Shown piece after piece: positions 1 through 34,205 of a DNA stretch of 34,205 nucleotides (its first letter is position 1; each line of letters opens with the position of its first letter). The notes below the pieces were generated by a model that made no database searches, had not been told where the DNA came from, and saw only the letters and a list, made by a program, of their open reading frames with translations. The position numbers and the translations under genes are program-made. This stretch comes from a virus (Duplodnaviria; Heunggongvirae; Uroviricota; Caudoviricetes), in the IMG/VR virus record IMGVR_UViG_2579778753_000004. One strand, 5' to 3'.

Positions 1-188
1 AATTTTGCGACCACGGTGCTTAACAAACTGGCGGAGAAGCTGGCCAAAGACCAGAACGGCGCAGATATTCCTGACCCGGCGCTCTTTGTCAAAAACCTTG
101 GTTTGGGAGATGCGAGCGGATACGTTGGTAGGCTGCTAAAAATACAGGTATTCACTGCCAGCGGGACAGTGACAAAAACGCCAGGCGC
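1..188. repeat. Left copy of inverted repeat (IR-L), coding, truncated by window edge
   Basis: Positions 1-188 are the exact reverse complement of 1681-1868 by hand alignment; identity stops at 189/1680. Both copies encode the same peptide NFATTVLNKLAEKLAKDQNGADIPDPALFVKNLGLGDASGYVGRLLKIQVFTASGTVTKTPGA. Confidence 0.9.
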
Positions 189-771
189 AAAAAAATGGCG
201 AATTAAATGTCTCGGTGGGGGGGGCGGCAGTTCAGCTGCACCGGCAACGGGTAGTAACGAGGTTTCCGTGAGTAACGGGGGCGGCGCAGGGGCATATGCT
301 GAGGGCATTTATGACGTATCGTCAATAACAACGGCGTCAGTCGTCATCGGTTCAGGCGGTGCAGGAGGAACGGCGGATTCAATATACGGCGCTGACGGCG
401 GAGCTAGCTCAGTTGGTTCGTTTATTTCATCGCCCGGCGGGAAAGTTGGATTACCCGCCGGCCCGGCAAACCCACCATTTCAGCCCGTGGCCAATACTAA
501 CAGCGATGGCCCGACTGGGTGGAATATTGTCGGCTCATCTGGAGCAGGGGCAGAACCAGCCGTAGCTGTTACATATAGCTATGCCGCTGGCTCGCGTGGT
601 TCAAATAGTATATTTGGGGTAGGCGGATCGATTCCTGCAATTAATGACCCGGCAAATCCCGGTGGGGGCTATGGTTCTGGAGCATCCGGCTGTTCGAATG
701 GCTCATCCCAACCAGCTAAATCAGGCGCAGCGGGACGCCCGGGAATCGTAATCATTGAGGAGCTGGCATAA
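1..771 (+). CDS. Alternative tail-fibre C-terminal module (silent orientation, 5'-partial, Gly-rich tip)
   Basis: Reading frame is open from position 1; the first 63 codons are the IR copy of the fibre constant region, then a unique Gly/Ser-rich C-terminus. No own start context; it would join the fibre N-terminus only after inversion. Confidence 0.6.
   Translation, partial: NFATTVLNKLAEKLAKDQNGADIPDPALFVKNLGLGDASGYVGRLLKIQVFTASGTVTKTPGAKKWRIKCLGGGGGSSAAPATGSNEVSVSNGGGAGAYAEGIYDVSSITTASVVIGSGGAGGTADSIYGADGGASSVGSFISSPGGKVGLPAGPANPPFQPVANTNSDGPTGWNIVGSSGAGAEPAVAVTYSYAAGSRGSNSIFGVGGSIPAINDPANPGGGYGSGASGCSNGSSQPAKSGAAGRPGIVIIEELA
85..110. other. Putative serine-invertase crossover site (hix/gix-like), left
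   Basis: TTTGTCAAAAACCTTGGTTTGGGAGA; its reverse complement shares the AAACCAAGGTTTTTGA core with hixL as I recall it (TTCTTGAAAACCAAGGTTTTTGATAA). Confidence 0.55.
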
Positions 772-953
772 TGAGTAATTATGCGCTAGTTAAAAATGGC
801 GTCGTTGAAAATGTTGTTGTATGGGATGGCACTGGAGACATTTTCGATGATTATATTACTGTGAATATTGACGACATATCGGCTGGTATCGACTGGACAT
901 ATGACGGAGAGGCATTTGCCCCTCCGCCAGAAATTACTCCGCAGGAGGCGTAG
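771..953 (+). CDS. Small protein coupled to the alternative fibre tip (putative cognate assembly chaperone)
   Basis: ATG overlaps the TAA of the upstream module (ATAATGA); 60 aa; converges on the 3' end of the minus-strand assembly gene. Confidence 0.4.
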   Translation: MSNYALVKNGVVENVVVWDGTGDIFDDYITVNIDDISAGIDWTYDGEAFAPPPEITPQEA

Positions 954-1365
954 GCCATTCAATATCTGGCGCACCGGAAGTATCGACCAGCTCCAGTGCG
1001 TCCAGATAATCCAGCCACAAATTATATTGCACCAGTTCCTCACCTTTCAGGCGACCAATCGCCGCTTTACCAGGCCATTGCTTACTGTTTATGTATTCGT
1101 TGACCTGATTAATCAATTGCTGCTTTTTCAGTTCGGCTGCGGCAATTTGTTCCTCATGAGTTGGCGGTGGAATATCAATCCATGCAGGCATTCCGTCGAT
1201 GACACCTCTGTATTTTCCTTCTGGTGCTTCCTTCATAAATTCGGCAGCAACAGTGTCGTCAATTTCGATTCCATCATCGGGCCATTCGCCGGATTCCTGA
1301 TAAGCGATTTTAAGCTCCACAGGGAAAAACGCATTTTTATCGGCACTGAAAATATATTTCTGCAT
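934..1365 (-). CDS. Tail fibre assembly protein (lambda Tfa / Mu U family)
   Basis: C-terminus ...LVDTSGAPDIEWPTPPAE resembles the conserved Tfa C-terminus; sits immediately downstream of the fibre gene. Confidence 0.75.
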   Translation of the reverse strand: MQKYIFSADKNAFFPVELKIAYQESGEWPDDGIEIDDTVAAEFMKEAPEGKYRGVIDGMPAWIDIPPPTHEEQIAAAELKKQQLINQVNEYINSKQWPGKAAIGRLKGEELVQYNLWLDYLDALELVDTSGAPDIEWPTPPAE

Positions 1366-1367
1366 TT

Positions 1368-2258
1368 CTACCGTCCTATCGAAATATAACTGAATCTGTA
1401 TTGCTGTGAGATATCACTGGTTGCCACACGCCACGCTGAATTACTGATATGTTCAAAATTTACAGACAAAACCTGCGGGGCAGGAATCGACGGGTCTGAC
1501 TGAACGGCATCAGACATAACACTGACTGAAACCATCGGCTGATTAGGGAATGGTATAGGGAAGTGTCCACTGATAAAGCGGGTCGTGTTTCCTGCAAAAG
1601 TGCCAAACTGAACAATATATCCACCTGGTAGCCTGAACCATCCCGAACCAGAAGCGAATGCTCCCATATCCGGTATCTGAGCGCCTGGCGTTTTTGTCAC
1701 TGTCCCGCTGGCAGTGAATACCTGTATTTTTAGCAGCCTACCAACGTATCCGCTCGCATCTCCCAAACCAAGGTTTTTGACAAAGAGCGCCGGGTCAGGA
1801 ATATCTGCGCCGTTCTGGTCTTTGGCCAGCTTCTCCGCCAGTTTGTTAAGCACCGTGGTCGCAAAATTCGGATCGTTACCGAGGGCATCCGCCAGCTCTT
1901 TAAGCGTATCCAGCGTCTCAGGGGCGCTGCCTGCAAGCGCTGCAAGTGCTTTGGCCACAAACTCAGTCGTCGCCAGCTTCTTGCTGTTATCGCTATTTGC
2001 AGGCGTGGGCGCTGTTGGCGTGCCGGTGAATGTCGGGCTGGCTTTCGGTGCGTACTGGGTATGCGGGTCTGCTGCCGCGATGTGTTTCGCAAGATCAGAA
2101 CCGCCTTTTTCAACCTGTTGCTTCAGGTACAGCGTGCGGCTGGCCAGTTGTTTACCCTGACGGTTAGAAATTCCGTCAGGCCCACCCAGAACGGGGTCAG
2201 AGACCTCAATCTGGTAGATGCCTTCTTCCCACTGCGGGGTTTCAGGTAGGTTTGCCAT
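1368..2258 (-). CDS. Tail fibre protein, currently expressed variant
   Basis: 296 aa; contains the TLDTLKELADALGNDPNFATT motif typical of fibre shafts; spans IR-R and a unique C-terminal tip. Confidence 0.8.
   Translation of the reverse strand: MANLPETPQWEEGIYQIEVSDPVLGGPDGISNRQGKQLASRTLYLKQQVEKGGSDLAKHIAAADPHTQYAPKASPTFTGTPTAPTPANSDNSKKLATTEFVAKALAALAGSAPETLDTLKELADALGNDPNFATTVLNKLAEKLAKDQNGADIPDPALFVKNLGLGDASGYVGRLLKIQVFTASGTVTKTPGAQIPDMGAFASGSGWFRLPGGYIVQFGTFAGNTTRFISGHFPIPFPNQPMVSVSVMSDAVQSDPSIPAPQVLSVNFEHISNSAWRVATSDISQQYRFSYISIGR
1681..1868. repeat. Right copy of inverted repeat (IR-R), inside the expressed tail-fibre gene
   Basis: Reverse complement of 1-188; may extend past 1868 because the partner is cut by the window start. 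Confidence 0.9.
1759..1784. other. Putative serine-invertase crossover site (hix/gix-like), right
   Basis: TCTCCCAAACCAAGGTTTTTGACAAA, the inverted partner of 85-110, lying inside IR-R. Confidence 0.55.
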
Positions 2259-2839: not shown

Positions 2840-3935
2840 CGGACACCCCGGTCATGTTAAGAGTGATCGCCGTGCAGTTTGCCCATTCGTTTTCTGCCAC
2901 CACCTTCAGCACCGGTGTCACCAGTTCGACCTGGTAGACCCCGGCAACGGACAGCACGCTGATAATCTGGCTGGGGACAATATCGCGCCCCAGCGTGGCG
3001 GTACGGGACGCTACCCAGTTCTGTATGGCGCTGTTGGCGTTGTCCTTTATAGAGTTAGCATCCTGGTCACGATAGATAGTGATGTTGGCTTCAATGGCGT
3101 AATCCACCTGCACAGGTGTTTTAGCCCGCACGGTATCAGTGAGCGGCCTGACTTTTTCGTCCGAGCATAAACTCTCTACAAGCGTAAGGATGCTGTCGTC
3201 CGGCAAGCCGGTGCTGAGCAGCGGATACAGTTCTACAGTGCCGGGAACCGGGGAAAGCACGGCAACATCGACAATATTGGGATGGGCCTGCATGGCATGA
3301 AAGCGGTATGCCATACGGCTTCCGGCGTTGGTGAATGATTCCGGGGCCAGTTTGATACGCTCGCGGAGCCTGTCATTGTCTTCCTGCTCAGAACCGCCAG
3401 AACTGGCCGCCATATTGGTCACCTGCAGGTCGACGTTATCAATCTCATCGAGCAACTGACGGACCTGCGCAGGCTGCCAGCCGTTGCCTGCGGCTCCCGG
3501 CTCGGTACAGGTGGCCGTGGCATTGACAAGCAGCAATCCGGCTTTCAGCACTACGTCCGTATCGGTTGCAAAAATAATGCTGTCGGAAGCGCTGACGCGG
3601 GTACCTGCCGGAATCAGCACATCAATGGCCAGTTCCTCATCCACGGAGAACTGGAGCGTGGTGGTGGCAGGCTGCGCGGCCAGTCGGTATACACCAACCA
3701 GTTCACCGAGGTAATCAATCATCGGCTCACGGGCAAAGGCGACCAGATTCTGTTTGGCCGCTTCCTGCGCCGCCACCCTGACCAGCATTTCGCGGTATGC
3801 CCACAGGTCAATCAACAGGCGCTCAGCCTGAGCGGGGTATAGCGTCTTGCCAGTTGCGGCTTCGTACTGTGCAATCATTTCAGCCGTGATTTTGTCAGCA
3901 TCACGTTCAATAAAATCGGGTTCTGTCAGCGCCAT
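2832..3935 (-). CDS. Baseplate J-like protein (P2 gpJ / Mu gp47 family)
   Basis: 367 aa, position and size; overlaps neighbours by a few nt. Confidence 0.7.
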   Translation of the reverse strand: MALTEPDFIERDADKITAEMIAQYEAATGKTLYPAQAERLLIDLWAYREMLVRVAAQEAAKQNLVAFAREPMIDYLGELVGVYRLAAQPATTTLQFSVDEELAIDVLIPAGTRVSASDSIIFATDTDVVLKAGLLLVNATATCTEPGAAGNGWQPAQVRQLLDEIDNVDLQVTNMAASSGGSEQEDNDRLRERIKLAPESFTNAGSRMAYRFHAMQAHPNIVDVAVLSPVPGTVELYPLLSTGLPDDSILTLVESLCSDEKVRPLTDTVRAKTPVQVDYAIEANITIYRDQDANSIKDNANSAIQNWVASRTATLGRDIVPSQIISVLSVAGVYQVELVTPVLKVVAENEWANCTAITLNMTGVSDG

Positions 3936-4273
3936 AGCAACTCCTGAGTCCGGGGTTGTCCGTCAGAGCCTTTCCAGCTCACCCGGAGCGTAAGATGTTC
4001 GCCGTCGACGGCGGGTTTAACCGACATAAGCTGGCAGCGAGGCTCCCAGCGGCGAATGGCATCGACGGATTCGCGCACCACATGCGGAATAGCCCGGTCA
4101 ATAGGCCAGTCGATATAAAGGTGCAGATTGCTGCCGAACTCCGGGCGATGCGGGTCGCTGCCGCGAGGAGTACGCAGGATGATTTGAATGGCCTGCCAGA
4201 TATCATCCAGCCCCCGGACGATTTCGCCAGGGGCCTGCAGAGCCGGTTGCCAGAATACTGAGGTTGTTTTCAT
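3926..4273 (-). CDS. Baseplate wedge protein, GPW/gp25 family
   Basis: 115 aa, gp25-like size and synteny between V-like and J-like genes. Confidence 0.7.
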   Translation of the reverse strand: MKTTSVFWQPALQAPGEIVRGLDDIWQAIQIILRTPRGSDPHRPEFGSNLHLYIDWPIDRAIPHVVRESVDAIRRWEPRCQLMSVKPAVDGEHLTLRVSWKGSDGQPRTQELLWR

Positions 4274-4327
4274 GGGGGCAGTATTGCCCCTGTGCGGGAA
4301 CGCCGATATTAAAGGCGTTTAAGAAGG

Positions 4328-4840
4328 TCAGTGGGAATGGTGATTAGAGTTCGGGCCGTCAGAGAGCATGCTGCCTGTCGAGTGGGCATTGCCGTTGATT
4401 TCAAGGTTGCCGTTCACCGTGGTGGTGTCAGCGGTCAAATCAATGGTTTTCCCCTTCAGGCTGATACCCACTGCAACCTCGATCACCACATGCTCGATAC
4501 CACCTTTGACTGTCAGCGTATGGGTCGCACGGTTATAGCTGAACTCTGCGCCATCCGCGTATTTCGTGCCCCGGACATGTTTGTCGCTGAACGGCGGTTT
4601 ATCGACTTCTGAGTACACCGCGCCCAGAATGACACCATCCTCGCCGTTGGCATCGAGCAGCACTTCAACCTGCTCCCCCACGTCAGGGAGCCAGTAATCC
4701 TTGTTATCCTGGGTATTGCGCTGCAGCACGTTAAGCCAGTTAGTGCGCAGGTTATCGCATTCCGGCAGACGAACGCGGGCCTGAACCTTGTCGGCATCGA
4801 CGGCGCTGACCGTACCGACCTGACGAGTGACGCCTGTCAT
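4328..4840 (-). CDS. Baseplate spike/assembly protein V-like
   Basis: 170 aa, gpV-like, followed by W and J homologues. Confidence 0.7.
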   Translation of the reverse strand: MTGVTRQVGTVSAVDADKVQARVRLPECDNLRTNWLNVLQRNTQDNKDYWLPDVGEQVEVLLDANGEDGVILGAVYSEVDKPPFSDKHVRGTKYADGAEFSYNRATHTLTVKGGIEHVVIEVAVGISLKGKTIDLTADTTTVNGNLEINGNAHSTGSMLSDGPNSNHHSH

Positions 4841-6009
4841 TATTTTTTCTCCTTTATTACCGTGGACGTGCTGCCGTCCGGTTTATAGACGGTCAGCGTC
4901 TGGGTTTTTCCGGTCTTTTTACCTTTCTTCGCTTTGCCCTGCGTAACCGGCCCTCGTGCCACTTCCAGTTCGGTGATGTAGCCGCTGTTACGGTCAAACG
5001 CATGGCGGGCAGTAGTTATCAGCCATGGCCCGGATAACTGACCAAAACCCACCAGTTCAATTTTGTTGCCTGCAGTCAACTGAGGCGTCCCCATCAGCGT
5101 CAGCGAGCCGTTCTGCTGGTATTCGTTATGCCTGGCCAGCGCCGAATCTGCTTTAATCCGGGCGCTGTCCGGATCACTGACGCGGCTGTTGACCTTCAGT
5201 GAGTCGGCACTGGTGACCTTACCGCCTTTGGTTTGTTTGTCGCTTTCGCTGGTACCGCCATCAGCTTCATAAACGATCAGCTTTTTATCGCTGCTCTTCT
5301 GGTGTTTTACCTTCGCGGATTTGTAGACGCGGTTGATGGTGTCACGCAGGGAAAAGCTGTCCACATCCTGCGGCTTTAACTGCCTGATCGGCTCCTGACC
5401 GCGTAACGTGGCAAGATGAGAAAAAACCAGCTGGTCGCTGACCACTTTCACGGCATAACCATACTCGCTGGCCAGTCGGCGCAGGAAGCCCACGTCCGTT
5501 TCAGCATACTGGGTCACCCGGTCAATTTTGATGGACTCAATACTGCCAACCAGCTTCAGCTGATGCTTTTTGGCAATCCGTCCGGCGATGGCCGCCAGCG
5601 TGGTGCTCTCGAAACCACGACTGGATTTTGTCCGCAGGGCGTTGTTGACCGACGTGGCCACGCCCCGGATAGCGACAACGGACGCGGGCGAACTCACCTC
5701 GATCTCGTCTATAGAGAACGTACCGCAGGACAGCAGCTTCTCGCCCTGATAACCCATTTTCAGCGTCAGCGTGTCACCCTTGCCCGGATACCACTTATCC
5801 AGCCAGCGGCCATCGGTGTCGTCCAGTTCCACCTCAATGGTATCGGACTCGCTTTTGATGTTATCGCTGTAGGTTACGCGGGTGACATAGGGGGCGATAT
5901 CGGTGGTGATGTTCTTCTGCAGATACCATAGCGTGAACACCGGACTCAGAACATCGCTGACGCCGGTTAACGCTGATGCGGCTTGTGCAGGGCTGTTTAT
6001 CTCAGCCAT
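4840..6009 (-). CDS. Late control D-like tail protein (P2 gpD / Mu P family)
   Basis: 389 aa, downstream of tape measure and U/X-like genes as in P2/Mu. Confidence 0.7.
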   Translation of the reverse strand: MAEINSPAQAASALTGVSDVLSPVFTLWYLQKNITTDIAPYVTRVTYSDNIKSESDTIEVELDDTDGRWLDKWYPGKGDTLTLKMGYQGEKLLSCGTFSIDEIEVSSPASVVAIRGVATSVNNALRTKSSRGFESTTLAAIAGRIAKKHQLKLVGSIESIKIDRVTQYAETDVGFLRRLASEYGYAVKVVSDQLVFSHLATLRGQEPIRQLKPQDVDSFSLRDTINRVYKSAKVKHQKSSDKKLIVYEADGGTSESDKQTKGGKVTSADSLKVNSRVSDPDSARIKADSALARHNEYQQNGSLTLMGTPQLTAGNKIELVGFGQLSGPWLITTARHAFDRNSGYITELEVARGPVTQGKAKKGKKTGKTQTLTVYKPDGSTSTVIKEKK

Positions 6010-6212
6010 GGGGCAATATCCTCTTCTGTACTGGCTTCTTCAGCCTCGATAACCGGAATCAGTAACAACAGCCCGGAGGGCAGCACCGGCGTGATGGCCA
6101 CGTGTGGATTGGCGGCAATTATCCGGGGATAGCCCAGCGGGTCGCCGTAGTACTGCCATGCGAGAGAGTCCCAGCGCTCTCCGTCACGGGTGACATGTTC
6201 AAGAAACATCAC
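5997..6212 (-). CDS. Tail protein X-like (LysM-like)
   Basis: 71 aa, ...ERWDSLAWQYYGDPLGYPRIIAANPHV... resembles the P2 gpX family. Confidence 0.6.
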   Translation of the reverse strand: MMFLEHVTRDGERWDSLAWQYYGDPLGYPRIIAANPHVAITPVLPSGLLLLIPVIEAEEASTEEDIAPWLR

Positions 6213-7093
6213 ACACTCCTCGCCAGAATTTTGGCTGCCATGGTGCTTAACCCCGGCGACATACGGGTGAAGGTGGTGCTGGCGGAGTTAAGCTGCCCGG
6301 AAACGGCATCCAGCGCCGCTGCGATATTGCTGCCGTCCACGCCGCTCAGTGAAGACTGTGCCTGTTGTACATACGTGGCCGCATCACTGGTGGCTCTGGC
6401 CAGACTGATGGCATCAGGCATGGATTCAGAAAGCGCATTAAATGCCGGAACGCTTTGACCCAACGCCCCGGACACGTTGCCCAGCCCGCTCATCAACCCC
6501 GGTACGCGGGTCAGTGCAACGGCGGGGTTATCCTTCATTTTCTGCGCCACCCGAACGGCACTGATGGTGGTCTGGAGAACAGACTGCGCCTGTTTGGCGT
6601 AGTTGACGCCGTCGCGGACGTACTGCGCTACCCCGGAAGGTGAAGGAACGGCACCGGAGACCGCCCCGACGCCGGGAACCTGCGTGCGTATTGCGGGTGG
6701 CTGTAGCGGGTTTTTCGGGTCGCCGATGTACTCCCGGAGAGACGCGGTGGCATTGACGGCCAGCACGTTGCCGGTGCTGTCGGTCTGCTCGCTGGTCGCA
6801 GTAACATCGGTAATCACGAACCAGCCGCGATAGTCACCGTTGCCGAAGACCAGCGCCAGCGCTTGATGGGCCTTCATGGCCGTTCGCAGTCTCGCCAGCT
6901 CCACGTCGGGCACACAATAGTGCTGATGGAAGACCAGGCTTATCTGGATTTCGTCCAGCTTATCGCCAACGAACTGCAGGCCGGGCTTACCCTCGATACG
7001 GGGATGCTCCGCATAATCGACGCCGAACGTGACCTCGAAGCCGTCCCAGTAGGTAATCAGTTCAAACTCAATATCACCCAATACTGCAAACAT
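6209..7093 (-). CDS. P2 gpU-like / Mu N (DNA circularisation)-like tail protein
   Basis: 294 aa directly after the tape measure gene; stop/start overlap with neighbours. Confidence 0.55.
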   Translation of the reverse strand: MFAVLGDIEFELITYWDGFEVTFGVDYAEHPRIEGKPGLQFVGDKLDEIQISLVFHQHYCVPDVELARLRTAMKAHQALALVFGNGDYRGWFVITDVTATSEQTDSTGNVLAVNATASLREYIGDPKNPLQPPAIRTQVPGVGAVSGAVPSPSGVAQYVRDGVNYAKQAQSVLQTTISAVRVAQKMKDNPAVALTRVPGLMSGLGNVSGALGQSVPAFNALSESMPDAISLARATSDAATYVQQAQSSLSGVDGSNIAAALDAVSGQLNSASTTFTRMSPGLSTMAAKILARSV

Positions 7094-9558
7094 CAGCTGT
7101 ACCTCCTGCGTTGTTGCTGAGCCAGCAGACGCTCCAGCATTTTCTCCAGCTCATGCAGGCTCATATTCAGTACGCCGGTCAACCCGTCAGGCGCTGCGGT
7201 TTCTTTGCCATTGAGGAAAAACTGAGGATTAAAGCTGACCTGGATACCGCCAGATGTTCCGCTGCCAGTTGCAGCTGCGCCACGACCTGAATATCCCGCC
7301 GCCATGATTTCCGGCGACGGGATACGGGGAACATCCGGTGTCATTTCAGTGGCCAGACGCTGCCCGGCCAGTGCAGCAAGTGGTGTGGTGCGCTGCAGGC
7401 CGATAGCGGCCCCCTGCGCAATGTTGTCACCAAAGCCTATAAACACACGGCTCGGCGAATGAATGCCCAGCTTTTCCTTAAACCAGCCGCCAACACTGTC
7501 GCCCATGTCTGTGACGGTAGTTTTGAGCGACTCCCATTTGTTTTTGATGCCGTTTATTAACCCGTCGATAAGATGGCCACCGAAGTCGGTGAACTTCGCT
7601 GGCAGATCAACACCGAGGTATTTCAGCGCAGCCGCAAAGGCTTTATAGAGCAGACCAACCGGCGACCAGTTAATCAGCAGCTTACCAATCCCCACGACAC
7701 CGCCATTAAACGCCTCTTTAATGTCAGCCCAGCGCTGTTTAAACCAGCTACTGACTGCGCCCCAGTTGCGATAAATAAGGTAAGCTGCTGCCGCGACGGC
7801 GGTGATGGCGAGACCAATGGGATTCATCAGCAGCGCCCGGCCAATCCAGAGAACGGCCCGCCCGGCGATCATAATGCCGCGAACCAGCCCACCTGACAGC
7901 ACACCACCCAGTGTTCTGGCTCCTCTGGCGACGGCGCTGAAGCCGGTCACCAGCCAGCGGAGCTTACCGCCTTCACCGAGTGCAAGCGACAGTCGAAGCC
8001 AGTTGGCCCGCAGTAAAACGGCATTTTTCCAGACGTTAACAAAGGGGGAAATAAGGAGATTCAGCCCCAGCTTGAGACCGATAGTGGCCATCTTGAAAGC
8101 GAGTAATGCTCCTACAACCTTTATGGTGCCGCTGACGATTTGCGGGTTTGCCGCTATCCATTTGCCGACACTGTCCATTAAAGGAATAAAAGTCTCACCC
8201 AGTTGGATCAAGGCCGGGCGTAGTGACTCACCAATGCTGATGGCTGCCTCGTTAAAACCAATCTGAGTTCTGCGCCAACGACCTTCGAGCGTATTATTTT
8301 GTTTTGCAGCATCCTTATCCAGCGTAGACATTGCTGACGGGGTATTCATTTCCTGCTTGCTGGAAAGGTATTTATCCCAGCCCTGACGCATTGACAGTAA
8401 ATGGTTAACGGTCTGAATATCAGTGAAGACTTCTGCCAGACCAAATGACTCCATTAGCTTCTGCTGGCCTTCCTGATCGCCTCTTGAGCCTGCTGCTTTC
8501 CATTGCTGTAAAAACGCCTTACCTTTACCGTCGATAAAACGGTTGGCAATCATCAGTGAGGCTTCATACTGTGAGAAGCCCTGAGCGACGTAATTCTGCA
8601 TTGACCCCTGGTAATCCACCCCGGCTTTAGCATATTTCTGGATGGTATCTCCGCGCCCCATCGCCGCCAGCCAGTTTGACATATTGGTGACGGCCTCTTC
8701 CGCTGAGCCGCTGCCTTTACCAACTTCCAGACTGGCGACGATCTGGGTAATCGCATCTTTTCCATAAATACCACGAGCAGCGAAGGCTTTAGCCATACCG
8801 GGTAATGCTTTTGCCATATCCTTCAGCTCAAATGACCCAAGTTTGGCTCCTGTTGCCGCAATACCAAATGCCTGTTCAAGTTCTTTCGCATCAGTGATTC
8901 TGAGTGCATCGCTGAAGGCATAAGTCATTTTGGCAAGGTCGGTCATATCGGCTTTGGTTGCTGTAGCGGTCTTTCCAAGCATCTCTGCAAACGTTGCTGC
9001 CCGTTCGGGGGCCATACCATCAGCAACTAATTGTCCGACTCCCCCTAACAGAGACTCCTGCAGTTGGTTAACCTTCAGCGAGGCCTGTCTGATAGCCAGG
9101 CCAATTGCACGTTCCTGCCTTGAATCCAGATCACCAGTGACACTGATATCCCGCAACTGCGATTCAAACGAGGCATATTGTTTGACTGAGGCCATGACCG
9201 GTGCACCCAGCGTTCGGGCGATGCCGTAAGTCTCTGCTCCCTGACCATAGAGCGCCATACGGTTGGACTTCAGCGCATCACTGGTGGCCGACACCGCCGA
9301 CAGACGGCGCTGCTGGCGCTCAATTTGCTCCATTGTGCGGCTTACCCGCAGCAGGTCGCTGTTGAGGCGCTGCATCCGGGAAGAACCCAACTGACCATAG
9401 CGTTCTGTTGCACGGGTTAAGGCGTTTTGGCGTTCCTGCAGGCGGCGCGATGTATCGCCCAGGGAATCAAGGGCGCGTCGGGTACCGCTGACGGCTGAGC
9501 GGAAGCTACTCCCGACAATGCCGCCAATAATGACGCCGACTGAAAATTCACTGGCCAC
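7093..9558 (-). CDS. Tail tape measure protein
   Basis: 821 aa, Ala/Gly-rich with hydrophobic segments, downstream of the chaperone; RBS AGAGGA before ATG. Confidence 0.85.
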   Translation of the reverse strand: MASEFSVGVIIGGIVGSSFRSAVSGTRRALDSLGDTSRRLQERQNALTRATERYGQLGSSRMQRLNSDLLRVSRTMEQIERQQRRLSAVSATSDALKSNRMALYGQGAETYGIARTLGAPVMASVKQYASFESQLRDISVTGDLDSRQERAIGLAIRQASLKVNQLQESLLGGVGQLVADGMAPERAATFAEMLGKTATATKADMTDLAKMTYAFSDALRITDAKELEQAFGIAATGAKLGSFELKDMAKALPGMAKAFAARGIYGKDAITQIVASLEVGKGSGSAEEAVTNMSNWLAAMGRGDTIQKYAKAGVDYQGSMQNYVAQGFSQYEASLMIANRFIDGKGKAFLQQWKAAGSRGDQEGQQKLMESFGLAEVFTDIQTVNHLLSMRQGWDKYLSSKQEMNTPSAMSTLDKDAAKQNNTLEGRWRRTQIGFNEAAISIGESLRPALIQLGETFIPLMDSVGKWIAANPQIVSGTIKVVGALLAFKMATIGLKLGLNLLISPFVNVWKNAVLLRANWLRLSLALGEGGKLRWLVTGFSAVARGARTLGGVLSGGLVRGIMIAGRAVLWIGRALLMNPIGLAITAVAAAAYLIYRNWGAVSSWFKQRWADIKEAFNGGVVGIGKLLINWSPVGLLYKAFAAALKYLGVDLPAKFTDFGGHLIDGLINGIKNKWESLKTTVTDMGDSVGGWFKEKLGIHSPSRVFIGFGDNIAQGAAIGLQRTTPLAALAGQRLATEMTPDVPRIPSPEIMAAGYSGRGAAATGSGTSGGIQVSFNPQFFLNGKETAAPDGLTGVLNMSLHELEKMLERLLAQQQRRRYS

Positions 9559-13918: not shown

Positions 13919-14872
13919 TTATTTCACGATGTTGGTGACGAGATACCCGGCATCGCCACCGACCACGGCGACTTTGTAGATATCGGTATAACGGCAGTAC
14001 TTCACCTTGCCGCCGACGCCGTCGTATTTATCCGCCACCGGCATCCCTTTACGGCGCAGGGTGTAGCCGAAGGACGGCTCGTTTTCGTCGGCGCTGTCGG
14101 TGCCCGGCTGGGGTTTGCCGACGTAATGCAGCATCAGGTTGTCGCCCCAGATATCAGCCGGGACTTTGTCCTTGTTCTGCGCATCTTTCATGGAGGCCAT
14201 AGAGACCGGCTCGCCGATCACCACATCTTCCAACTGGAAAAGGTCTTTCAGAATTTCGATGGTGATACGCTTGCGCTCGTTGGCTCCAATCGCGGCCTGA
14301 ATCGCCGGGTGGAACTTCAGCAGCGACATGACGCTGGCCCCCATGGTCATCAGGTTTGGGCGCAGGCCGGTTTTGTTACGTACCGCCTCAATGCCACCTT
14401 CAATGATGCCAATTGGATCACCTTTACCACCGACCCAGCGTTCAGCAGCTGCCAGTGCTTTAACGGACGATGCCGGGTAAACGTTTTTGTCCTGCGCCAG
14501 ACGGGCCGCATACAGTTCGCGCTTCAGGTTGACGCCACTGGTCACGCGACGAATGGCCTTGGCCTCTTCGTTGAACATCGACTCCGCCTGCTCGCGGTAG
14601 TCCACCGGCGCGGCCAGATCGTGCTCGTTAAGAACCAGATCCAGTTTGCCGGTCTTCTCACGTACCAGGACGTTACTGTCAGCCCCCACGGCACGCTCGG
14701 TGTCGTACTCAACAAAGGCGGATTTACCGAAGGTCGGGACGGTCACACCTTCCTTATCGGTCTGGACAATGGGGAAGATGCGTTCGCCGATAAATGCGGC
14801 ATTTTTATAACCGCGAGCGATGCTGGTCAGCACCGGGTCAACAACGCGCTTACCCTTTAAATAGTCAGACAT
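13919..14872 (-). CDS. Major capsid protein (Mu T family)
   Basis: 317 aa, N-terminus MSDYLKGKRVVDPVLTSIARGYKNAAF..., downstream of protease/scaffold gene. Confidence 0.85.
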   Translation of the reverse strand: MSDYLKGKRVVDPVLTSIARGYKNAAFIGERIFPIVQTDKEGVTVPTFGKSAFVEYDTERAVGADSNVLVREKTGKLDLVLNEHDLAAPVDYREQAESMFNEEAKAIRRVTSGVNLKRELYAARLAQDKNVYPASSVKALAAAERWVGGKGDPIGIIEGGIEAVRNKTGLRPNLMTMGASVMSLLKFHPAIQAAIGANERKRITIEILKDLFQLEDVVIGEPVSMASMKDAQNKDKVPADIWGDNLMLHYVGKPQPGTDSADENEPSFGYTLRRKGMPVADKYDGVGGKVKYCRYTDIYKVAVVGGDAGYLVTNIVK

Positions 14873-33443: not shown

Positions 33444-33514
33444 CTTCCCATGTTGACCCAGTACTTCCCATAATTATCTCACTTATCCCCTGTCATTTAT
33501 CTCAAGTCTAATCA
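33444..33514. repeat. Prophage right terminus with subterminal direct repeats (putative transposase-binding sites)
   Basis: CTTCCCAT at 33444 and 33464 (20-bp period); TTATCTC at 33475 and 33498 (23-bp period); element ends ...AATCA at 33514. Confidence 0.55.
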
Positions 33515-34205
33515 GCTCACGGCCCTGATAGATAACGCCTTTTGAATCGCAAACCACGATGTTATGTTTTTGCAGACCCAGCGCTACCAGCAGGTTCATA
33601 CAGGCGATTGCTGCGGCACCCGCGCCGGAAACCACCATCCGCACGTCGGAGATGTTTTTCTCCACCACGCGCAAGCCGTTGAGGATGGCGGCAGTGCTGA
33701 TGATTGCCGTGCCGTGCTGATCGTCGTGGAATACCGGAATATTCATCCGCTCGCGCAGTTTCTGTTCAATATAGAAACATTCTGGCGCTTTAATGTCTTC
33801 GAGGTTGATTCCGCCGAAGGTCGGTTCGAGCGCAGCGACAACTTCAATAAATTTGTCCGGGTCGAGTTCATCAACTTCAATGTCAAATACATCAATCCCG
33901 GCGAATTTCTTAAACAGAACGCCCTTGCCTTCCATCACCGGTTTGCCAGCCAGCGCGCCAATGTTGCCTAACCCCAGCACCGCCGTACCGTTAGAGATCA
34001 CCGCCACCAGGTTACCGCGCGCGGTATATTTGTAGGCTTTTAACGGGTCTTTTTCGATTTCAAGACAAGGTGCGGCAACGCCTGGTGAGTAGGCCAGCGC
34101 CAGATCGCGCTGCGTTGCCAGAGGCTTGGTTGGAGAAACCTGGATTTTCCCTGGAACTGGAAATTCATGGAAATCAAGTGCACTTTGTTTTAACTGGTCA
34201 TCCAT
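33483..34205 (-). pseudogene. maeB: maeB 5' fragment (NADP-dependent malic enzyme) interrupted by the prophage
   Basis: The translation matches the N-terminal ~229 residues of E. coli MaeB as I recall them ([53 protein letters not shown]...GVIYQGRE), then diverges into [10 protein letters not shown]-stop read from phage DNA. Host-derived DNA is 33515-34205. Confidence 0.8.

Follow-up and report, generated by a model that had tools for sequence, protein, structure and literature searches.

The left end of the window carries a genuine tail-fibre switch of the Din family (Hin/Gin/Cin/Pin) that belongs to a BcepMu-like transposable prophage of E. coli. By the window we mean the whole stretch of DNA analysed, 34,205 nucleotides of IMG/VR virus record IMGVR_UViG_2579778753_000004. 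The 188-bp coding inverted repeats that bracket the switch in this sequence are almost certainly an assembly artefact beside a scaffold gap, and not a feature of the element. We hold with considerable confidence that the whole is explained by an ordinary Gin/Cin-type fibre switch with 26-bp sites, the 188-bp repeat being artefactual.

Layout of the switch region

The window contains a perfect inverted repeat with arms at 1-188 and 1681-1868, which are 100% complementary and separated by a spacer of 1,492 nt. The length of this repeat is far above chance expectation. An earlier note, made from the letters alone, had described an inverted repeat of at least 188 bp at this place, and in the window as given it is present. 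The arms enclose two convergent modules, one consisting of a gp53-like fibre tip and a Tfa chaperone gene, the other of a glycine-rich fibre tip and a 60-aa ORF. The open reading frames and the domain matches agree with the earlier note on this point as well, as it had seen two convergent modules, each with an alternative tip and a small gene. The features of the region are listed in Table 1.

Table 1. Features of the switch region. Positions are those of the window, with the exception of the invertase, which lies in the source scaffold (locus L006).
Feature	Position	Strand	Remarks
Outer part of left repeat arm	1..84		Reverse-complement copy of fibre constant-region bases 1785-1868
Left 26-bp crossover site, hix/gix-like	86..111	+	TTGTCAAAAACC TT GGTTTGGGAGAT, core TT
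Alternative fibre C-terminus 2, glycine-rich domain	112..771	+	Pfam Gly_rich_2
60-aa ORF, 3' of the glycine-rich tip	771..953	+	phrog_14370, unknown function
Tail-fibre assembly chaperone, Caudo_TAP / Tfa	934..1365	-	Serves the gp53-like tip
Alternative fibre C-terminus 1, gp53-like receptor-binding domain	1368..1680	-	Pfam Gp53-like_C
Inner part of right repeat arm	1681..1758	-	78 nt copied from the beginning of the glycine-rich module
Right 26-bp crossover site, inside the fibre gene	1758..1783	+	ATCTCCCAAACC AA GGTTTTTGACAA
Tail-fibre constant N-terminal part	1784..2258	-	
Serine invertase, 193 aa	L006 14159-14740, outside the window		GYIRVST motif; Resolvase and HTH_7 domains

As assembled, the fibre ORF runs on the minus strand over 1368-2258, encodes 296 aa and has the Gp53-like_C domain at its end. 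The right crossover site coincides with the boundary between the constant and the variable part of this gene. On the plus strand, the ORF with the Gly_rich_2 domain is open from position 1 to 771. The glycine-rich tip is silent in the orientation shown, and inversion would fuse it in frame with the constant part. The 60-aa ORF is presumed to be a helper or chaperone, because it always travels with the glycine-rich tip.

Looked up by exact match, the 296-aa fibre protein is recorded for a single contig, scaffold KK736492.1 of assembly GCA_000692755.1. The locus on this scaffold, which we refer to as L006, is the reverse complement of the window and extends beyond its left end.

Crossover sites and invertase

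The core AAACCWWGGTTT occurs in exactly two copies in the 34 kb, at 93-104 and 1765-1776, with a chance expectation of 0. The 26-bp sites are best placed at 86-111 and 1758-1783, where they are laid out as 12+2+12 around a TT/AA core. Each repeat arm therefore does hold a hix/gix-like 26-bp sequence as the earlier note proposed; its placement at 85-110 is one base off and 86-111 is the better choice. By our count, the window site is identical to Mu gixL, TTATCCAAAACCTCGGTTTACAGGAA, at 19 of the 26 positions. Compared with the gix sites of Mu, the paired sites show the arrangement of the Din family, that is, inverted orientation and matching TT/AA cores. It should be noted that the outer half of the left site as assembled is the half-site of the fibre-constant side. 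The invertase-proximal site is found in the source scaffold at L006 14068-14098 and reads TTCTCCCAAACC AA GGTTTTTGGAAA.

The earlier note had seen no recombinase in the window and proposed to look for one to the left of it, and it would have given up the switch if no serine invertase lay within a few kb on that side and deep long-read data showed one orientation only. A Gin-like gene is indeed located there in the source scaffold. In brief, its product is a small serine recombinase with the catalytic serine of the YxRVST motif and a C-terminal HTH, as is typical of the Din family (Resolvase, 2.8e-46; HTH_7, 2.5e-14). It matches the Gin structures 4M6F and 3UJ3 with E = 1.6e-79, is 65.5% identical to Mu Gin, and is 100% identical to its counterparts in the prophages of the complete genomes HH107 and CFS3292. 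In the 100%-identical prophages of complete genomes the invertase gene lies approximately 50-60 bp from the segment.

Invertases of the Hin type depend on a Fis-dependent recombinational enhancer, which lies inside the invertase gene, in its 5' part, about 100 bp from one of the sites (PMC3798978). The 5' coding DNA of the present invertase gene (GTATCAACAATCGACC...GTGCAAACTGTGACC), approximately 100-160 bp from the centre of the site, aligns with gin and cin-like genes, in gin with the part in which the enhancer is located according to the literature, and the invertase may likewise depend on Fis and an enhancer. The N-terminal sequence VSTIDQNSDLQRNAL...ANCDRIF of the protein closely resembles what we take to be the enhancer-coding stretch of Hin.

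Host prophage

A BcepMu-like transposable prophage makes up the remainder of the window. Its genes include those for an rve-type transposase, an AAA+ ATPase, GemA and a CI-like repressor. The prophage is integrated in maeB; its terminal sequences are TGAT...ATCA, and a 6-bp duplication, GTGAGC, borders them. The region of the tail, head and terminase genes matches the prophages in HH107 and CFS3292 at 100% over 20 kb and has distant similarity to BcepMu and phiE255. The identical prophage adjoins a truncated csgC in HH107 and a truncated gadC in CFS3292, and such differing insertion sites are as expected of a transposable phage. In the literature on BcepMu and invertases we found nothing specific to this element.

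Both orientations of the switch

The cassette is found in both orientations in public assemblies, for the element itself as well as for the same cassette in a prophage at dusA. For the element, the glycine-rich module is joined to the fibre in metagenome contig L075, and the gp53-like module is joined to the same constant part, via its native linker, in L062. The latter is also a metagenome contig, and its ENA accession number neighbours that of L075. In the dusA prophage, the glycine-rich end of the cassette is at the fibre in strain CFSAN061769 (L001) and the gp53-like end in strains S115 and D97-1 (L124 and L125). Annotated full-length fusions exist for the glycine-rich tip in pB1W1 and for the gp53-like tip in HH107 and S115. 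The fibre gene is thus split by a site into a constant N-terminus and two opposed C-termini, each with its helper, and both fusions are in frame.

The invertible fibre switch proposed in the earlier note stands with respect to its sites, its modules, its invertase and the two orientations. The in-frame swap of tips stands too and is achieved by the 26-bp sites alone; the long coding repeats, which the note had taken as its basis, do not serve this purpose.

We suggest that the Gin-like invertase recombines the site at 1758-1783 in the fibre gene with an inverted partner beside the invertase gene, which would flip a cassette of approximately 1.6 kb. The constant N-terminus, reading from 2258 down to 1784, would then read on in frame into the gp53-like tip or the glycine-rich tip. 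The matching helper would lie in the same orientation, the Tfa chaperone in the case of the gp53-like tip and the 60-aa partner in the case of the glycine-rich tip. Such a switch should alter the receptor specificity of the progeny virions, and we infer that it has a consequence for host range.

Origin of the long inverted repeat

Position 1 of the window is the first base following a 100-N gap in the source scaffold. Beyond this gap, window positions 1-1680 recur in mirror image, with 100% identity, at L006 12359-14038. The mirror copy is followed in L006 by the native 33-nt linker, a crossover site and the invertase gene, after which the prophage ends and maeB resumes. The two contigs that flank the N-gap mirror each other exactly and share the base at which they end. 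Among the 126 fetched loci, the source scaffold is the only one with an N-gap that has mirrored flanks. As deposited, the scaffold has four crossover sites, two of them within the mirrored duplicate, and we judge that this duplicate is probably artefactual. The junction of constant part, site and glycine-rich module occurs three times in the scaffold, and the junction of invertase, site and linker once. This is the pair of junctions that one orientation of the cassette would have. The sole other join in the scaffold is that at 1680/1681.

We also considered whether the left arm runs into a second complete fibre gene, as would be the case for head-to-head prophages or an inter-prophage inversion. 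This was rejected, as what is found there is the gap, the mirrored cassette and the invertase.

The 188-nt repeat corresponds to the junction that a fibre gene carrying the glycine-rich tip should have. In the left arm, 84 nt of constant sequence occupy the place that in L075, HH107 and CFS3292 is taken by the invertase flank. In the right arm, 78 nt stand in for the native 33-nt linker, which encodes EAAKRDVGTGDN and, in the four other loci that were aligned, always stands before the gp53-like domain. Through misassembly, 84 nt of the fibre constant part would have come to lie beyond the left site, and 78 nt from the glycine-rich module on the inner side of the right site.

The join at 1680/1681 was not found elsewhere. 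A 30-mer across it gave no matches in the metagenome and IMG/VR contigs, and in 5,426 complete E. coli genomes it is spanned nowhere, the matches listed ending at window position 1680. For the native junction there are 55 contigs in IMG/VR and 62 among the metagenomes. Perfect repeats at the paired sites measure 7-22 bp in 18 other loci, and 188 bp only in the window and its scaffold. The perfect repeat is approximately 21 bp in L075, 15-22 bp in complete genomes and 22 bp in CFS3292, and a repeat search gave 29 nt for HH107.

We reconstructed a single-copy version of the region with the order tail protein I, fibre constant part, site, glycine-rich module, 60-aa ORF, Tfa, gp53-like module, linker, site and invertase. 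Metagenome contig L075 is 100.000% identical to this reconstruction across 3,413 nt. Based on these observations, we consider it very likely that the assembler laid down the cassette twice, in mirror image across the gap. The long repeats that the earlier note had treated as a property of the organism do not hold up as such, given that position 1 abuts the gap and that the 1680/1681 junction is unique to the scaffold.

The boundaries of the 84-nt and 78-nt stretches were compared with a unipath model (K = 96) and with 100/101-nt reads anchored on constant-specific bases, and no single K fits both ends. There is no obvious microhomology at 1680/1681 to account for the join. The chimeric fibre ORF remains in frame, which real recombination could also give.

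The strongest of the other explanations is a true inverted duplication of the whole cassette, giving four sites, genuine 188-bp repeats and a hybrid fibre in a region of multiple inversion like Min of p15B. Multi-site Din systems do exist, p15B Min being one of them, and a duplication is exactly what the deposited scaffold shows; moreover, the hybrid fibre ORF is intact and IMG/VR contigs L034 and L054 have duplicated gp53/Tfa modules. If true, a Min-like region of multiple inversion would have arisen recently in a BcepMu-like prophage, and its hybrid fibre would have the first 26 residues of the glycine-rich module in place of the linker that belongs to the gp53-like tip. Nevertheless, we regard it as improbable. 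Against it stand the exact symmetry of the two contigs about the N-gap, up to a common end base, the chimeric junction and protein that are unique in every collection searched, and the existence of a 100%-identical single-copy version in L075. A perfect palindrome with arms of approximately 1.7-1.9 kb and a short spacer would, in addition, be unstable in E. coli, judging by what is established for SbcCD.

About as improbable is that only the outer 84 nt are artefactual, and that the inner 78-nt duplication is real and arose by gene conversion between the modules. The sites would then be surrounded by a genuine perfect repeat of approximately 104 bp, and it would be this repeat that broke the assembly. 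A repeat above the typical k-mer length would explain why the assembler failed, and the ORF remains in frame. However, the other contig of the scaffold has the native junction of gp53-like module, linker and site, so the native and the altered version would both have to be present. The junction at 1680/1681 is absent from the other sequences searched, and the glycine-rich fragment would be joined to the gp53-like domain without the conserved linker.

It is highly improbable that the segment is flipped by RecA through homologous recombination of the long repeats, and not by a site-specific invertase. A perfect match over 188 bp would serve RecA as a substrate if real, but the long repeat is most likely unreal, the homology of the cassettes of different elements begins within 86-98 and thus inside the 26-bp site, the same cassette is flipped in the dusA prophage with a repeat of only 22 nt at the sites (repeat search), and a Gin-like invertase adjoins the segment.

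Comparison with known inversion systems

Inversion of phage tail-fibre tips by Din-type recombinases is long established from Mu, P1 and e14. The probable assembly artefact set aside, the present switch resembles the G segment and Gin of Mu: in both a 26-bp site splits the fibre gene, convergent modules consist of a tip and a chaperone, the invertase is encoded just outside the segment, and the host phage is transposable. The segment is approximately 1.6 kb here and 3 kb in Mu, and the tips are gp53-like and glycine-rich here and S/S' in Mu. One of the helpers here is a 60-aa ORF of unknown family and not a Tfa/U protein. Furthermore, the backbone is BcepMu-like with a P2-type tail, unlike that of Mu.

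The C segment of P1 has flanking repeats of approximately 0.6 kb. Among the relatives of the P1 C/Cin system, the P1-like plasmid pB1W1-p1 shares the cassette itself with the present system, located there beside a recombinase that is 62% identical. The present system differs from P1 C in that the long repeats are not real; the 188-bp repeat is found only in the gapped scaffold, and a repeat search of the pB1W1 copy gave only 27 nt.

In the group of the Pin/P segment of e14 and the Mu-like prophage at dusA (stfP/stfE, tfaP/tfaE), it is the dusA prophages that have the same cassette, in both orientations. There the cassette is located between a constant part annotated as stfP and the recombinase; that invertase is only 47% identical to the present one and the backbone is another. 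Hin and the hix sites of Salmonella flagellar phase variation are similar in their 26-bp sites with an AA/TT core. Hin differs in flipping a promoter and not a coding cassette, and is no phage fibre system.

Significance

The biology of the switch is textbook, and the element is already present in complete E. coli genomes with PGAP annotation. The lesson from the source scaffold is that an invertible segment may appear duplicated in mirror image in a draft scaffold, together with spurious long inverted repeats and a chimeric fibre gene, and that scans for inverted repeats then flag a false feature.

At 99% identity, the cassette at 86-1680 recurs in pB1W1-p1 and in the dusA prophage. The same 1.6-kb cassette, with its limits at the 26-bp sites, is thus shared by three unrelated mobile elements: the BcepMu-like prophage, the dusA prophage and the P1-like plasmid. 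In addition, a different cassette pair is present in each of the three prophages that share 20 kb of identical sequence. The shared cassette and the differing pairs fit the exchange of cassettes at crossover sites that is known among Din systems, and illustrate it.

Insertion site and prophage ends

The prophage is inserted in maeB, the host malic-enzyme gene. The right end of the window carries an N-terminal fragment of 240 aa, and the remainder of maeB is located past the invertase in the source scaffold. The prophage termini are TGAT...ATCA, with a 6-bp duplication, GTGAGC, on both sides of the ends. An identical prophage adjoins a truncated csgC in HH107 and a truncated gadC in CFS3292; these differing neighbours fit Mu-like transposition.

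Cassette content

The glycine-rich tip is always accompanied by a 60-aa ORF, assigned to phrog_14370 and without a Pfam match. This ORF occupies the place of the Tfa-type chaperone found with other tips, and the convergent Tfa gene shares 20 nt with its 3' end. It may act as a minimal chaperone.

Duplicated gp53/Tfa modules were found in two IMG/VR contigs, as an inverted pair in L034 and as an apparent tandem duplication in L054. They may represent real variants with long repeats or several cassettes, or else further assembly artefacts.

Positions of the features compared
Feature	Locus	Position	Remarks
maeB insertion	Window	33515-34205, 33483-33520
maeB insertion	Source scaffold (L006)	14741-14830
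60-aa ORF	Window	771-953
gp53/Tfa inverted pair	L034	3778-4560 / 5624-6406	783 nt, 99% identity
gp53/Tfa repeat	L054	2084-2383 / 3918-4217	1,834-nt spacing
Cassette copy 1	Window	86-1680	BcepMu-like prophage
Cassette copy 2	L001	4001-5589	dusA-integrated prophage, stfP-type fibre
Cassette copy 3	L003	5001-6595	97-kb P1-like plasmid
Fibre-proximal site	Window	1759-1783
Fibre-proximal site	HH107 (L002)	5769-5797
Tip pair	HH107 (L002)	3860-6270
Tip pair	CFS3292 (L005)	5810-8307
Tip pair	Window	1-2258

Cassette exchange and turnover

The 1.6-kb two-tip cassette is shared at 99% identity by three unrelated elements, and the homology among them starts inside the crossover site. From these alignments, we suggest that the crossover sites are also points where whole cassettes are exchanged.

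Prophages that otherwise match exactly show a single-base difference at the fibre-proximal site, which reads GGTTTGGGAG in the window and in L062, a metagenome contig of the same element, and GGTTTAGGAG in HH107. This difference is consistent with half-sites swapping together with the cassettes.

The prophages of the window, HH107 and CFS3292 share 20 kb of structural genes at 100% identity as well as an identical invertase, next to which each of the three has a different pair of alternative fibre tips. Turnover of the invertible segment is therefore much more rapid than that of the remaining phage genome.
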